A DNA stretch of 64,000 nucleotides from Thermodesulfobacteriota bacterium (GCA_965198945.1 CBDAQI010000010.1:1-64000); one strand, 5' to 3'. Shown: positions 50,371 through 63,684, counted from the first letter of the stretch. Translations and numbers: made by a program. Notes: generated by a model not told the origin, from the letters alone.

Positions 50371-52053
50371 TTACTGAAAGAAGTAGGTAAAAGCCACACC
50401 CGCTCTGATACCCCAAATGGAGTCAACATCACTTGGTTTCGCAATCGCATAGTGGAACCTGACATCCCCTCCTATGTTCATGTTGTCTCGGAAGGGATAA
50501 TGGAGTCCCGCTTTGACAAGAATGGGCCAGCTTGTCCCGCCGTTCACCTTGTCGCCAAGGTCGTAGAACATAATGCCCGTTCCCACTCCGAGATTTCCGG
50601 TTACCGTCTCAGACTTGAAGTTCGCAACGGCGTAAACAGGAACCGTCACATGAAACAGTGTCGGACTTTTGTCCAGATTGCTAACCTGAACCGCTCCCGT
50701 GGGAGTTGCAGTGGAGCCCGGGAAAAGATTTGTCACAATCTGCCGGGCTGGCAAATCTCTGTTTGCCGCATTTGCGCTTGTCACTGCCGCCGCCGCATTT
50801 GACGCAAAAACGGGTGCCGCCGCATTTACATGGTCCGCCGCCGTTGCGCTTACCCGTGTCGCTTCAACAAAAGAGACTAAAGCAGGGCCCGCAGTATCTA
50901 ATTGATTTTGTTGTGGTGTATTTTCTATGGATTGGGTTGCTGTGTTTGCCATAACGGCTCTAATATGTGCGTTATTGGTCGCCGCGGCTGCGTTAATGCC
51001 TATGGATTCAATTGATGTGCCCGCGAGTAAACTGTTAAGACTTTGCGCAAAATCTTCGGCTGCGGATGCATTGCCGGTTGCTGATACTGTTTGTACCTTT
51101 ACCGAGCCTACCACGCTTTGTTGGTCCGACCCTGTTACAAGCGTTTCGAAAGCAGCATTGGCGCCAATAACCCCCCCAGAAGGTCTTTCAAGCAAAACCT
51201 GCGCTGTGTTGACCGCCCCTACTAACTGAACAGCAATACCGACTGCGTTCTGAGCCGAGGTATTTGTTCTGATTGCCTCCTGTTCTGCGGCTATTACCGT
51301 TTCCTTTGCCGCCGTATCAACAAGAGCTGCGAAAGTCAACTGTTCATTAACAGTCAGACCCCCGGCTTCCGCCGAGCGTAATTGACTGAGATATGCAACC
51401 AAAAACTGTTGAGCAAAAGTGGCTTTTCTTGCGTCATTTTCAAGATCGTCCAGAGCAGTTCTGATAGCATCCGGTGCAGTGGCTTGATCTATTGCAACCG
51501 CACCAGTTTGACCTTCTCTGGCAATATCATATGCCGCAATAACCGCATCCCTAATTCTTTTCTCCTCAGTGTTTTCTGCGGGATTTGCCGCCAGTTTTGC
51601 ATCTGTAAACAGGTTCAAAGAGGTGTCTTCATCTTGACTGCTTACCTGCGTGTAGTTAAGACTGGCCGCTAAGACTTGCGCCTCAATGTCGTTTTCAAGC
51701 TGTGTTTTGGGGTTGCCCTTGACCTTAACATCTGAACTCAGACTTACCATTAATCCGGGCTCAATCTCAATCCCAAGTTCCAGATTGGATGTCCGGTCAA
51801 AATAATATCCCGCCTTCGGCGCTATGTAGATTCCGTGCTCGGTAACCTCGCCTTTGAGGTTTTTAACTGGACTCGTTGCCGCTCCGACATTTACCGTTGC
51901 CTTTCCCGGCAACTTCTTCAAATCCGCAGACTGATAGTAGTAACCGCCCGTTATGCCGAAACGCAGTTTCGTATCTCCCAATGTGTGCTCATCAGCTCTT
52001 GCGGCAGAACCCGCAAAAGTGAGCAACAGAAAAAATAATAAAACCCTTATCAT
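50371..52053 (-). CDS. Outer-membrane beta-barrel protein with a ~340-aa Ala-rich insertion
   Basis: Signal peptide, about three amphipathic strands, large helical insert, about five C-terminal strands ending TYFFQ. Confidence 0.78.
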   Translation of the reverse strand: MIRVLLFFLLLTFAGSAARADEHTLGDTKLRFGITGGYYYQSADLKKLPGKATVNVGAATSPVKNLKGEVTEHGIYIAPKAGYYFDRTSNLELGIEIEPGLMVSLSSDVKVKGNPKTQLENDIEAQVLAASLNYTQVSSQDEDTSLNLFTDAKLAANPAENTEEKRIRDAVIAAYDIAREGQTGAVAIDQATAPDAIRTALDDLENDARKATFAQQFLVAYLSQLRSAEAGGLTVNEQLTFAALVDTAAKETVIAAEQEAIRTNTSAQNAVGIAVQLVGAVNTAQVLLERPSGGVIGANAAFETLVTGSDQQSVVGSVKVQTVSATGNASAAEDFAQSLNSLLAGTSIESIGINAAAATNNAHIRAVMANTATQSIENTPQQNQLDTAGPALVSFVEATRVSATAADHVNAAAPVFASNAAAAVTSANAANRDLPARQIVTNLFPGSTATPTGAVQVSNLDKSPTLFHVTVPVYAVANFKSETVTGNLGVGTGIMFYDLGDKVNGGTSWPILVKAGLHYPFRDNMNIGGDVRFHYAIAKPSDVDSIWGIRAGVAFTYFFQ

Positions 52054-52174
52054 CCTTCACACCCTCCTAAAATTCTTCAAAAGTCACATCGAACTTTTTT
52101 ATTATAGCCTGATATGCGTTGAAAATTCAAGCCCCTTTTTAGGGGCTTATAACATTTGCTTGCTGCCAATTTAA

Positions 52175-52473
52175 CTGGAGCCCCGCCTGTCGGGTCTCTG
52201 ACAAATACAACACTCTGTTTATAGAGAAACTTATAGAGAAACACTCAGGCTTCTTCAACTCTGGTTGAATTGGTAGCAAGGCCCGGCGCCCACGCGCTGG
52301 CAGAGGATAAAATAAGCCAATTGGGAGATAGTGAGGTGAAATTTGAAATTTACACCACCCCTCCGCCGCCAAAAGATGAAGACGGCATGATGTTTTGATT
52401 GAGCGCCCAGCACCTCTAACGAACCACACACCTTGTTCATTATCAGTAAACACTGTCGGGGACTTTTTTTACT
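52175..52473 (+). ncRNA. Putative structured RNA inside the IS1595 right end (copy 1)
   Basis: Conserved blocks shared with 63303-63537(-), substitutions compatible with pairing, terminal stem followed by a U run. Confidence 0.5.
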
Positions 52474-52552
52474 TTGCAATGTAAAAAAAGAGCCTATAAT
52501 CATCTTGCTTTTTAATGGTTAGTAAGAATGCCAACAAAAGGGGAAACAAGCC

Positions 52553-52843
52553 ATGAAAGAAAATAAAGCAGAGCAACTTAATTTGTTTGAAATCAAGGGC
52601 AAGGAAATAAATCCCATTGTATCCACCCTTGAAGAGTTGATAGAGGGCAGGAAATCGCACGCCTTATCTACTTTTGACAGTATTATCAGTGCGTTTGATA
52701 CCTTCCGCATTTACCCTTCAAGTCATAAAAAATCAGATATTGCTAAAACTCCCGCCGAAGGGTTGGCTTCCGATTGGAACAATGTTTTTACAGACTTAAG
52801 TATTGCGTTTGGGAACGAAACCTGTCGGGTTGACATTGACTAA
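52553..52843 (+). CDS. Hypothetical passenger protein
   Basis: AT-rich ORF with GLASDWNNVFTDL, overlapping the next gene. Confidence 0.55.
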   Translation: MKENKAEQLNLFEIKGKEINPIVSTLEELIEGRKSHALSTFDSIISAFDTFRIYPSSHKKSDIAKTPAEGLASDWNNVFTDLSIAFGNETCRVDID

Positions 52844-53270
52844 AAAGCCGCCAGTAAACACTTCTCATTTACCAAACCAACCTGCCTCAGGGCAAGGTGA
52901 ATTAACTCCTCTGCAAGTTGAATTACGAACTGAGCAGTTGTTTTCTGGGCCATTGCCGCCTCCCGTAGTGCTTCAAGATTATGAAAAAATTCAAAAAGGA
53001 TTTGCGGAACGTGTTATCGCAATGGCCGAAAAAGAACAAAACAACAGGCATACTATAGAAAAAGATAGGCTGGACAATGATTTCGTTGTAGAGAAAAAAG
53101 GGCAACAGTTTGCTTTTTGGATTTGTATTGTGTTAATAGGAGGCGGTGTCGGTCTCGTTGCACTCGGCTACGCTATAGCTGGGGCAGTGCTTGGCACAAC
53201 CACACTTGGTAGTCTGGCATACACTTTTATTGCGGGACGCCGTTCCAAAGACAATGCCAAAAACAAGTAA
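52803..53270 (+). CDS. DUF2335-like membrane protein (passenger)
   Basis: FSGPLPPP...YEKIQKGFAERVIAMAEKEQNNRH plus two TM helices; true start may be slightly downstream. Confidence 0.85.
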   Translation: MRLGTKPVGLTLTKKPPVNTSHLPNQPASGQGELTPLQVELRTEQLFSGPLPPPVVLQDYEKIQKGFAERVIAMAEKEQNNRHTIEKDRLDNDFVVEKKGQQFAFWICIVLIGGGVGLVALGYAIAGAVLGTTTLGSLAYTFIAGRRSKDNAKNK

Positions 53271-53275
53271 TATGT

Positions 53276-53425
53276 CTACTTATTTCTGCGCTTTTTGCTT
53301 TTCCTGTTTGCAGATTTGTCGGAGTTTGCTGAATCGGTTTTCTTTTTAGGGGACTTCACAATCGCCTTTCCTACATCTTCAATAGATGCATTTATCGGTT
53401 CAATGAGCCTTGGTTTACGAGGCAC
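53276..53425 (-). CDS. 49-aa basic ORF directly after the IS1595 transposase
   Basis: MPRKPRLIEPINASIEDVGKAIV...; homologous DNA (LIEPINATLEDVAKAV) follows the second IS copy at ~62870-62920. Confidence 0.5.
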   Translation of the reverse strand: MPRKPRLIEPINASIEDVGKAIVKSPKKKTDSANSDKSANRKSKKRRNK

Positions 53426-53564
53426 AGGTCAACTCCTTGTATTTCAGGCGTTTGCCTTCGGTATTCGCTATAATCTTCGCCAGTTGGTTGATTGTGTCAA
53501 GCGACTGCAGGTTGTGCCTTCCGGCAAACTCATCCACATACCTCTGCAAATGCTTGTTGCTGAA

Positions 53565-54532
53565 TTAAGGCCGCATTTGCCAGAGCTTTTGTAGAAGAAG
53601 CCTACAGGCAATACAGGGCGATTGATGCCGCCGCTGACCCCGCTACCCCCCCCCAACCCGCTTATGGCTCAGGTGCAGGCCGCAAACGTTGCTGACTGGA
53701 CGGTCATCACCGGCAGAGTTGAGTCAGGACTCGAAACAGCCGGACAACAAATTAGATTTGCAAGTTTAACCGGGGTTGGTGCTAACCCGGCAGATGCTGA
53801 TGGAGCCTTAGATTTGTTCACAGACGCAAATCTGAGGGCAGATGCTAGCGATGATAATGATGCCTCCAGAGTTAAAGAAGCAATTATTGCGGCTTATGGA
53901 ACAGCGAATGTAGGGGGGGGGTTATCGCGGACGATGCCAATGAAGGTCAAGTCCGAACGGCCCTTAATGATGGTGGTTTTACCGATGAGGAGAAAGCAGA
54001 GTTTACCAAACAGTTTATGATTGAATATTTCCGCCAGTTAGGCGCTTCTGACACCGTTGTGTTGACTGAAGCACAGACGAGTCTCATAACATCCGTTAAT
54101 ACTGCAAATCCAGATGGCACAGCAGTAACTACGATTCCGACGGGAAGACCCGTTCTGGCAAGTGTTTTCCCTTCAGTTGCCACTACGGCAACGGCTCTCC
54201 CCGCTGGTAGTGTTCAAGTAAGCAATCTGGACAAGAGCCCGACACTGTTTCATATAACGGTTCCGGTTTATGCGGTTGCGAATTTCAGTTCTGAAACGCT
54301 GACCGGTAACCTCGGAGTGGGGACGGGCATTATGTTCTACGATGTCGGAGACAAAGTGAACGGCGGAGCCGCCTGGCCGATTCTTGTGAAGGCGGGGCTG
54401 GAATATCCTCTCAGAGACAACATGAACATAGGAGGGGACTTGAGGTTCCACTATGCACTCACAAGCCCGAGCGGAGTTGACTCCATCTGGGGCGTCAGAG
54501 CGGGTGTGAAGCTCACCTACTTCTTCCAGTAG
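53565..54532 (+). pseudogene. 5'-truncated paralog of the 50371-52053 beta-barrel protein
   Basis: Last 108 aa are 91/108 identical by manual count; shared helical module LDLFTDANL...; no signal peptide; frameshifts at C9 (53646-53654) and G9 (53913-53921). Confidence 0.85.
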
Positions 54533-62184: not shown

Positions 62185-62872
62185 CCACGAAAGCATATAC
62201 AAAAAATGCCTTTGTTTGGGGCTTATATACCGTTTTAGGCAAACAGTAATTTGAACCGGTATTGATGGGCATATTGTTTTGTATGTCTACCAAAAGAAAG
62301 AATATCAGTGTTTACGAGTTCATAAGCAGGGACCCGGATGAGAAGGCGGTTGTTGTTTTCTTTGAATAAAGCCGGTGGGACAGGACCGGGCGTCATTGTC
62401 AGCATTGCGGCGGTTTACGGCCAACCAAAGCCAAGCGGCAGGATGCCGTTTCACTGCAAAGACTGTAGCAAGCATTTCAGTGTTCGCACGGGTTCCGTGT
62501 TTGCGGAGAGCAATCTGCCTCTCAATAAGTGTCTCATGGCGATTTATTCTCTCGCAACCAACCTTAAAGGGATGGCTACGCTGGCTTGAAAAAAGGTTTT
62601 AAGCATATGGCGGTCAGTCACTCTGTGAGTGAGTATATCAAGTGGTTCATACAAACGGGGTTGAACCCTTCTGGTCAATGCTCAAAAGCGGTTATGTCGG
62701 TGTTTATCATCAATTCAGCAATAAGCATTTGCATAAATATGTGGATGAGTTCGCGGGCCGGCACAATCTGCGGACGCTTGGCACAATCAACCAACTGGCG
62801 AAGATTATAGCGAATACCGAAGGCAAACTCCTGAAATGCAGAGAGTTGATTTACGCTCCGACAAGCCAAAAC

Positions 62873-63217
62873 TCATTGAACCGATAAATGCAACTCTTGA
62901 AGATGTGGCAAAGGCTGTGTTTCGGAATAAGAAGCTGAAGAAAAAAGACAGAGTAAGAAAGCCGCCCAATTAAAACGCGGAATCTTCATAAATTTTTCTT
63001 TGTATACGCCGGCCTGCTTGATAATCTCCAACAATGTGCCGACAGGTATTGTTTCTGAGCGATAAGCAGTTAGTCTTTCAATAGCAACTCTACAGGCTTC
63101 CCGCAACATTTCAAAAGCATGATCTGCCGTATCGCCACAACTGGCAACGCCAAAATCAAGACATTGAGAGAAATAATTTTCGCCCTCTTTCCATGAAACC
63201 GCTTTTGTTGTGTCCAT
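62873..63217 (-). pseudogene. HicB-like N-terminus joined to a HicA-like C-terminal remnant
   Basis: WKEGENYFSQCLDFGVASCGDT...LREA (HicB-like) then IPVGTLLEIIKQAG (HicA-like). Confidence 0.65.
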
Positions 63218-63302
63218 TTCTCCTCTGTGTTTTCAAATTGCCGAATAATAGGGAACTTTTGCGGAACTAACAGTGCTTTTTGTCAAAAAGCTTTCCCATA
63301 AC

Positions 63303-63537
63303 AGTAAAAAGAGTCCCCGATAGTTGTTTACCAAACTAATGAACGAAGGGTATGAAGTTCATTAAATATTGGGGACTCAAAATTCCAAGCATCAAATTAA
63401 GTTGCCAACCAAATCTCCTTGCATACCAGCGCGTGGGCGCCGGGCCTTGCCACTTACTCACTGAAAAGAGAAAGCCTGACTGTTTCCCTGTAAACAGAGT
63501 GTTGTATTGATCAGAGACCCGACAGACGGGTTTCCAG
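63303..63537 (-). ncRNA. Putative structured RNA inside the IS1595 right end (copy 2)
   Basis: Homolog of 52175-52473; gagtcccc...ggggactc stem followed by a U run. Confidence 0.5.
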
Positions 63538-63684
63538 CGAATAAGTGGCGGGAAAACCATAACAGTAAACTTGTAAAATAATCAAGAAGGCGTCTAACAA
63601 AGTATATAAGTCTCCTTTATTTTGTTGGACTTTACGCTTTTTTGCTTATAAAATGAACAAGAGGTTGGGCTTGGCGGGGGTATT

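Follow-up and report, generated by a model that had tools for sequence, protein, structure and literature searches.

A structured RNA related to sRNA-Xcc1, probably a leader of cargo genes, in decayed IS1595 elements of a Thermodesulfobacteriota bacterium

We analysed a stretch of 64,000 nucleotides (nt) from a Thermodesulfobacteriota bacterium (GCA_965198945.1, CBDAQI010000010.1:1-64000; hereafter the window), in which an initial annotation had placed two copies of a candidate structured non-coding RNA inside elements of the insertion sequence (IS) family IS1595. The RNA is real and strongly structured, with a length of ~125 nt, and sequence comparison identifies it as a divergent relative of sRNA-Xcc1, a known mobile small RNA. 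We think it somewhat more probable than all other functions that it is a cis-acting leader of cargo genes in a passenger module of IS1595 elements, and the two copies of the window are read as orphaned leaders that have decayed in dead transposons. New here, in that we did not find them described, are the branch of the sRNA-Xcc1 family that bears the helix P1 and its place in IS1595.

Structure and covariation of the RNA

The structure was assessed by covariation in an alignment (A4) of 63 distinct sequences, which was scored by five measures against 500 shuffles. In this alignment 98.0% of the cells are paired and 22 of the 28 pairs have changed on both sides; no shuffle attains the observed value on any of the five measures, and pairing falls to 31-49% when the partners are slid against each other. 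The long helix P1, whose 5′ strand is the extreme 5′ end of the RNA, has 12 modelled pairs and up to ~20 in single sequences. Double changes are found at all 12 pairs, with up to six pair types per position, many of them G-U. Because the G-U pairs of P1 are abundant and fail on the opposite strand, the strand of the RNA is fixed, and a structured RNA on the strand originally proposed is borne out. P3 and P4 also covary, and the core helices are 97.6-99.5% paired, with compensatory changes.

The initial annotation had located both copies correctly, but the RNA begins ~14 nt further upstream than assumed there, at 52161 and 63550, since the outer half of P1 had been overlooked. Two short pairings had also been suggested. 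The first, CUCUG with CAGRG, corresponds to P4 and stands, whereas the second, GYCUG with CAGGC, pairs in 61% of the cells, a value that 94 of the 500 shuffles match. This second helix was rejected as not distinguishable from shuffles.

A further helix, P-alpha, is formed by GUCGGGUCU with AGRCCCGRC and is paired in 98.2% of the cells. One of its positions shows the types UG, UA and CG, and there is one swap from G-C to A-U. The search model leaves P-alpha unpaired, so the alignment has no bias in favour of this helix. The strands follow one another as P1 5′, P-alpha 5′, P1 3′ and P-alpha 3′; the two helices thus cross and must form either a pseudoknot or two alternating folds. In nested models the P1 fold is lower in energy in 61 of the 63 sequences, by ~11 kcal/mol relative to the P-alpha-only fold (medians), and given this preference a pseudoknot appears likelier than a balanced switch.

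Within the window the two copies are found in inverted orientation. Self-comparison of the window matches 52175-52230 with 63482-63537 (56 nt, 88%) and 52266-52300 with 63426-63460 (35 nt, 89%), and according to BLAST the 5′ blocks of copies 1 and 2 are 74.6% identical over 126 nt and the 3′ blocks (52417-52473 and 63364-63303) 77.4% over 62 nt. Much of the divergence between the copies lies in P1, where both strands differ and pairing is retained. On the opposite strand, 3′ of each RNA copy, lies a gene fragment (53364-53566 and 62915-62712, 84.8% over 204 nt), a piece of dead transposase; the RNA blocks, at 75-77% identity, are less similar between the copies than this fragment. The open reading frames (ORFs) that overlap the RNA lie on different strands in copy 1 and copy 2.

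A search of the whole window against Rfam at gathering thresholds returned no match. With reporting by E-value, the best match at the RNA is always sRNA-Xcc1 (RF02221; gathering threshold 53 bits, model length 87 positions), over model positions 1-87, in the same register and below the threshold. The best relative scores 46.3 bits (E 2.4e-5 in a 31-kb search, 1.4e-7 in 181 nt), three distinct relatives score 34.5-34.9 bits, three more 30.3-30.9 bits and a gammaproteobacterial copy 27.7 bits; two of the relative loci searched duplicate two others. Copy 2 of the window reaches 20 bits over positions 1-87 (E 0.25 in a 181-nt search). Apart from sRNA-Xcc1 and rows at chance level, searches at E up to 10 turned up no self-cleaving ribozyme, riboswitch or other Rfam family in the regions covered. 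The initial annotation had known of no RNA component described for IS1595 elements; the core turns out to be a full-length, if sub-threshold, match to an RNA already known to be mobile.

Distribution, cargo and linkage to IS1595

For searches in other genomes we built a covariance model, R1, from 10 sequences, with P1, P3 and P4 as its structure. It has six matches in the genome of the window (E 4.7e-21 to 1.0e-7) and a seventh at E 0.33; further copies in this genome, including one on contig 13 (the C13 copy), were also found by BLAST. The seventh copy, C1:332099-332192 on the minus strand, is badly decayed (19 bits) and has an IS-end-like repeat before it, at C1:332236-332260. Transfer RNA (tRNA) genes lie ~1 kb upstream of the C13 copy (L009:189-260), and at a Parvibaculaceae locus (L029:173-246) a tRNA gene stands directly ahead of two tandem RNA copies. 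Among 120 sampled genomes of the phylum, 34 have R1 matches, with 1-7 each. Of the 46 loci that a pattern scan picked out in 185,579 species genomes, 21 were judged real by eye, and R1 confirmed 20 of these.

By their names, the confirmed hosts are Thermodesulfobacteriota, Candidatus Poriferihabitaceae, Candidatus Spongiihabitans, Arenicellales and Parvibaculaceae, and they include sponge-symbiont Gamma- and Alphaproteobacteria. Nineteen of the 20 confirmed members from species genomes are metagenome-assembled genomes (MAGs) named as sponge symbionts or isolate-coded assemblies of Thermodesulfobacteriota, Arenicellales and Parvibaculaceae; the remaining one is a sea-cave MAG. The presence of at least two phyla among the hosts suggests transfer within the sponge habitat. 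Of 17 pattern matches in metagenomes, eight are members of the RNA family, and on one 14-kb contig two RNA copies (L110 and L111) lie 1.8 kb apart. There were no pattern matches in viral contigs.

In relatives from the same genus, the conserved 5′ block stands right after a promoter-like site and right before a ribosome-binding site and ATG. A similar arrangement is common in the wider family. In 33 of the 63 distinct instances, 19 of them with a TG extension, a -10-like hexamer precedes the model start by 3-18 nt, compared with 3 of 63 in a control window. Downstream, a ribosome-binding site followed by an ORF of 40 amino acids (aa) or more, which starts no more than 200 nt from the RNA end, is found in 47 of the 63. 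The distance from RNA to start is mostly 15-50 nt, with a median of 27 nt among the 45 instances in which the start lies within 70 nt. By crude regular expressions, the N-terminus of the ORF is signal-like in 43 of the 47 and carries a lipobox-like motif in 26 of the 47. Elements that otherwise differ are similar through the RNA and a further ~75-90 nt, comprising the ribosome-binding site and the signal peptide, after which the similarity ends; at L086, L089, L092, L094 and others, a near-identical lipoprotein signal peptide (MKRI.SLFVVLLFVVGCGGG...) is joined to unrelated mature parts. The position of the RNA and the shared signal peptide thus define a unit of promoter, leader, ribosome-binding site, signal peptide and variable exported cargo.

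The strong covariation, taken together with the fixed place between a promoter and genes for exported proteins, suggests a cis-acting leader of mobile cargo. In such a scheme, the RNA would be made as the first part of a transcript from its own promoter; IS1595 elements carry it as the head of their passenger module, and it persists where the transposase has been lost. It would most likely act in cis on its own cargo mRNA, where the base-paired 5′ end and the compact core may set either mRNA stability, by protection, or translation. A stable small RNA may be released too, as with the 88-nt sRNA-Xcc1 of Xanthomonas.

Several observations weigh against this interpretation. Since the model fitted the alignment to P1, P3 and P4, these helices are favoured in it, and many of the aligned sequences are kin. 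Sixteen of the 63 instances, both window copies included, have no cargo ORF by the rule of at least 40 aa within 200 nt, and the -10 hexamers of both window copies match at only 4 of 6 positions. Across the nested ensembles of 45 sequences, the main partner of the ribosome-binding site is the early coding region (26 sequences), the conserved leader being its partner in only 5, and no classical sequestering switch was seen in these folds. Finally, all the Rfam scores lie under the gathering threshold, and copy 1 of the window has no Rfam match at E up to 10. As a separate candidate, pairing of UCUCY, from the 5′ strand of P-alpha and P3, with the GGAG of the ribosome-binding site was tried and rejected, as it occurs in 1 of 45 sequences in nested ensembles.

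Could the RNA instead be a stand-alone small RNA acting in trans? The copies of the window, running from promoter to terminator, would then be the functional form and would base-pair with other mRNAs, a mode of action suggested for sRNA-Xcc1 in Xanthomonas and Xylella. In the available portion of one paper, sRNA-Xcc1 of Xanthomonas campestris exists as a discrete RNA of 88 nt, whose ends were mapped and which gives one band on Northern blots (PMC2996969); moreover, three copies of the present genome (C10a, C10b and C13) share a terminal hairpin with a U run, and the C13 copy has no ORF after it. Nevertheless, we hold a role in trans to be rather unlikely: in 47 of 63 relatives the RNA is followed, at a distance of no more than 200 nt, by a ribosome-binding site and an ORF, no terminator is seen between RNA and ORF in the downstream flanks of 15 loci, the 3′ module with the terminal hairpin is seen only in this genome, no complementary target of the variable part was found there, and the promoters of the window copies fall short of what is usual in the family. 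In addition, the targets published for sRNA-Xcc1 in Xanthomonas and Xylella are predictions only, as far as the available portions of the two papers go (PMC12189769, PMC2996969).

Linkage to IS1595, which had been proposed from the window, extends to its relatives. A DDE match of the IS1595 family is present in 57 of the 120 sampled genomes of the phylum, and at least 21 of the 57 RNA matches outside the window's own genus lie within 3 kb of an IS1595 DDE match among those listed. Fifteen RNA loci near such matches were taken for detailed analysis. In six of them the RNA directly follows the transposase on the same strand, in four the two are convergent with ~1 kb of cargo between them, as in the window, and in five they are divergent. 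The terminal inverted repeats of intact relatives are 20-39 nt long and of the type GGGGATTATATAC...; a repeat pair could be identified in ten loci, and in nine of these the RNA lies between the repeats. In the remaining locus, the IS is inserted into the cargo gene. Relic 2 of the window shows the same arrangement as these nine loci. The window layout is one of several, since an IS end lies within 400 nt upstream of the RNA in just 5 of 62 instances. L086 and L094 are related IS1595 elements that have inverted repeats, transposase and RNA-cargo module in common; relative to the module, the transposase gene of one runs opposite to that of the other.

The link to IS1595 is not obligatory. The RNA is present in all five relatives from the genus, none of which shows a DDE match, and in three complete genomes of sponge-symbiont Gammaproteobacteria no RNA copy is closer than 4 kb to an IS1595 match. 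These cases bear on the possibility that the RNA is a partner in transposition, a guide- or bridge-like molecule whose variable middle chooses targets for the IS1595 transposase. The physical linkage to IS1595 elements and, in the window copies, the variable segment between conserved blocks speak for such a role. Besides the RNAs kept without or far from a transposase, however, the position and orientation of the module relative to the transposase vary (tandem, convergent or divergent), and the “variable middle” is in most members the start of a cargo gene. The variable middles of the window have no other match in their own genome at E up to 0.05, and none in 50,697 phage records. To our knowledge, the DDE transposases of the IS1595 family need no RNA. 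A role as transposition guide is the weakest of the rival explanations and highly improbable; the related suggestion in the initial annotation, that the variable middle is a guide or antisense segment, finds no support, given the absent genome and phage matches, the cargo start at that place in relatives, and the five genus relatives that carry the RNA without a transposase match.

The two copies of the window and their transposon relics

The features of the window are collected in Table 1. The transposase relics were mapped by tblastn with 13 intact transposases of related genomes. Their IS1595 ancestry and the loss of transposase function are clear as far as sequence can tell. The Pfam family DDE_Tnp_IS1595 matches only the C-terminal third of the transposase (40.3-41.6 bits, cut-off 27), and the transposase of relic 2 is the sole match to this family in the whole genome. 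Relic 2 spans 62218-63614 and consists of a repeat, the weak promoter, the RNA, the stub, the terminator, a 114-aa ORF, the dead transposase and a second repeat. Its 8-bp flanks, CTTTGTTT and CTTTATTT, are identical at 7 of 8 positions, which fits the 8-bp target duplication of the IS1595 family. Relic 1 keeps one end only, and the first 10 nt of this repeat remnant are the same as the start of the left repeat of copy 2 and resemble the repeats of intact relatives. The repeats, the inverted repeats and the map of the relics therefore agree with the placement first proposed, that is, two RNA copies just inside the right end of IS1595 elements, pointing inward and standing ahead of unrelated passengers.

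Table 1. Positions of RNA copies and IS1595 relics in the window
Feature	Position	Strand	Description
Terminal inverted repeat remnant, relic 1	52142..52160	+	GGGGCTTATAAC...; adjoins the RNA directly
Structured core, copy 1	52161..52300	+	R1 86.7 bits over model positions 1-124; covariation; order: P1, CCCG linker, P-alpha 5′ strand, P3, AAUACAA/GAAAYA loop, P4, P1 3′ strand, P-alpha 3′ strand, P5 start
Variable middle, copy 1	52301..52415	+	GAGGUG ribosome-binding-like site, 15-codon stub ORF, cargo absent
Conserved 3′ module, copy 1	52416..52470	+	Hairpin UAACGAAC...GUUCAUUA, GUAAACA, CUGUCGGGGACU, 7-U run; predicted fold
Promoter-like site for relic 1 passengers	52473..52500	+	TTTGCA, 16 nt, TATAAT; 10/12 consensus matches only
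Passenger ORFs, relic 1	52553..53270	+	96 aa without family; 155 aa with DUF2335 / phrog_3996 (membrane protein)
IS1595 transposase stub, relic 1	53430..53564	-	Last 45 codons; tblastn aa 266-313, 46-64% identity
Left terminal inverted repeat, relic 2	62218..62240	+	GGGGCTTATATACCGTTTTAGGC; like repeats of intact relatives
IS1595 transposase pseudogene, relic 2	62274..62854	+	Frameshifted; ~aa 108-215 of intact relatives unmatched (tblastn)
Passenger ORF, relic 2	62873..63217	-	114 aa; weak HicB-like match, E 0.0033, 18 bits, cut-off 27
Conserved 3′ module, copy 2	63306..63364	-	Stem GAGUCCCC/GGGGACUC around hairpin UAAUGAAC/GUUCAUUA, then UUUUU; predicted fold
Variable middle, copy 2	63365..63425	-	AAGGAG ribosome-binding site, 3-codon stub
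Structured core, copy 2	63426..63550	-	R1 89.1 bits over model positions 1-124; fold z-score -2.75
Weak promoter region, copy 2	63551..63589	-	TTGATT, 18 nt, TATGGT; not called by promoter scanner
Right terminal inverted repeat, relic 2	63590..63614	-	GAGACTTATATACTTTGTTAGAC

The two window copies have lost their cargo, and what follows the core is a stub of 15 (copy 1) or 3 codons (copy 2). Behind the stub stands a 3′ module of 60 nt, which is shared with the C13 copy. It is composed of the hairpin UAAYGAAC/GUUCAUUA and a U run, and in copy 2 and the C13 copy the hairpin is nested in the stem GAGUCCCC/GGGGACUC. In the predicted folds, the window copies are thus closed by the terminator-like end described in the initial annotation. 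A simple terminator scanner calls neither of the two hairpins; its rule allows loops of 3-8 nt, and the loop of copy 1 holds an inner hairpin. The module is found in this genome only, as BLAST against all collected loci matched the genome's own copies alone. A pattern search for the module gave 6 matches in 119 other genomes, compared with 4 for the reversed control, with a pattern that is too strict, recovering 1 of the 3 own copies. In these elements the cargo has been replaced by the short stub and the compound hairpin with its U run, so that the window copies might yield at most orphan RNAs of ~310 and ~245 nt, from weakened promoters.

An attenuating leader had been considered from the outset. 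In a riboswitch-like version of this idea, CGGG would pair either with the upstream CCCG or with the downstream RCCCG and thereby gate the terminator in the window or translation in the relatives. The conserved CCCG is paired with CGGG in 90.5% of the cells, in competition with the covariation-supported P-alpha, and in minimum free energy folds of the window copies the P5 hairpin overlaps the 3′ end of P-alpha. Furthermore, a promoter scan found no promoter-like site between the terminator and the passenger ORF of copy 2, for which attenuation is accordingly possible. In copy 1, on the other hand, a promoter-like site of its own follows the terminator, and here the suggestion fails. The pairing of CCCG with CGGG shows no covariation, and cannot be judged by it because the sequence barely varies; in nested models the P1 fold is too strongly preferred for a balanced switch, the predicted folds rarely pair the ribosome-binding site with the leader, and the downstream genes are too varied for a metabolite riboswitch. 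For these reasons we judge an attenuator of this kind improbable, and prefer a cis-acting cargo leader to it.

If the family consists of cargo leaders, are the two copies of the window still in use? They could be inert debris, no longer expressed or used, of a family that functions elsewhere. Their transposases are dead, their cargo is lost, and their -10 hexamers are poor. Copy 1 is without the ~50-nt promoter spacer that is present in copy 2, and 12 nt of it are duplicated. With R1 the window copies score 87-89 bits; the top-scoring copies of the six genomes of the genus, one per genome, reach 100.8-126.2 bits. On the other side, all core helices still pair in both copies, the differences between them in P1 are compensatory, and the terminator module is retained in three diverged copies. 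We regard inert debris as a serious possibility, though one we would put somewhat below even chances. The duplication in copy 1 is a perfect tandem repeat of TTATAGAGAAAC (52219-52230 and 52231-52242) and covers the 3′ half of P4 plus the loop strand that follows P4.

The passengers of the two relics differ. For the 114-aa passenger of relic 2, searches of PHROG and NCBIfam gave no match. The second passenger of relic 1 (52803-53270) matches DUF2335 (E 5.5e-13) and phrog_3996, a phage ‘moron’ membrane protein (E 6.3e-32). Relic 1 is flanked by an inverted repeat of 320 nt (50372-50691 and 54212-54531, 81%), which corresponds to the 3′ ends of two divergent ORFs of 560 aa (minus strand) and 171 aa (plus strand). 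Neither ORF has a match in Pfam, PHROG or NCBIfam. They may be paralogues, or a single gene rearranged by the element.

Wider meaning and comparison with known systems

The window itself is of lesser value in this context, as both of its copies are relics; the family as a whole indicates that IS1595 elements can carry a structured RNA within a modular passenger cassette. A module common to sponge symbionts of different phyla, as these are named, points to horizontal trade in surface lipoproteins in the sponge microbiome. sRNA-Xcc1 has been known since 2010, and no demonstrated mechanism was found for it in the available portions of the literature (PMC2996969, PMC12189769, bioRxiv 10.1101/2025.06.18.660453). 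We would like to put forward, as a speculation that is more likely wrong than right, that the RNA belongs to a portable sensor or control module. Leader, promoter and lipoprotein signal peptide would make up an “express-and-export” cassette, by means of which IS1595 elements would transfer and exchange surface lipoproteins among unrelated sponge symbionts of several phyla; as sRNA-Xcc1, the same RNA would stand at the head of integron toxin cassettes. The family might then be a widespread cis-regulatory leader, whose crossed P1/P-alpha fold responds to a signal or protein, and not a virulence small RNA of Xanthomonas. In the literature on sRNA-Xcc1 and on IS1595 and small RNAs, the bioRxiv supplements aside, we found neither an RNA inside IS1595 nor the P1 extension described.

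How does the RNA compare with other RNAs and cargo of mobile elements? The bridge RNA of IS110 and the omega RNAs of IS200/IS605 TnpB and of IscB bind a recombinase or nuclease and have programmable guide loops. Like them, the present RNA is a structured non-coding RNA that lies within an insertion sequence near one end. Unlike them, it persists without a transposase and is joined to coding cargo, and no complementarity to a target was found for it. In ISfinder, the IS1595 subgroups marked ‘+’ carry passenger genes. The window elements share with such passenger-carrying elements the DDE_Tnp_IS1595 domain, the terminal inverted repeats, a near-perfect 8-bp flank repeat and passengers between the repeats; they differ in the structured RNA that heads the passenger module, which we did not find described, and in having no working transposase.

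A transposon-borne structured 5′ untranslated region that is able to yield a regulatory RNA is also known from IS200, where a small RNA derives from the 5′ untranslated region of tnpA (Ellis et al. 2017, PMC5435999). Judging from the available portion of that paper, the IS200 RNA leads the transposase gene whereas the leader described here heads cargo, and the two sequences are unrelated.

The closest known relative remains sRNA-Xcc1, with which the RNA shares, over all 87 model positions, the outer helix (corresponding to P-alpha), P3, the AAUACAA/GGGAAAUA internal loop and the short P4 hairpin. Both are carried on mobile DNA: sRNA-Xcc1 is said, in the title of a 2011 paper by Chen, to be integron-, transposon- and plasmid-borne, and the present RNA lies between IS1595 repeats in the window and in relatives. 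Both are often multi-copy and stand upstream of a gene, in the case of sRNA-Xcc1 the small gene symE. According to the available portions of the respective sources, sRNA-Xcc1 is multi-copy in Xylella (PMC12189769), and in Xanthomonas it precedes symE within the most widespread integron cassette of that genus, where it is transcribed against the cassette promoter (bioRxiv 10.1101/2025.06.18.660453). The main structural difference concerns the second local hairpin of the sRNA-Xcc1 model, which is replaced here by the 3′ strand of the covarying P1 that crosses the outer helix, and it is at this hairpin that cmscan marks non-standard pairs. The hosts differ as well, being Thermodesulfobacteriota and Proteobacteria named as sponge symbionts instead of Xanthomonadaceae, and the carrier is here IS1595, with a cargo that consists mostly of lipoproteins.

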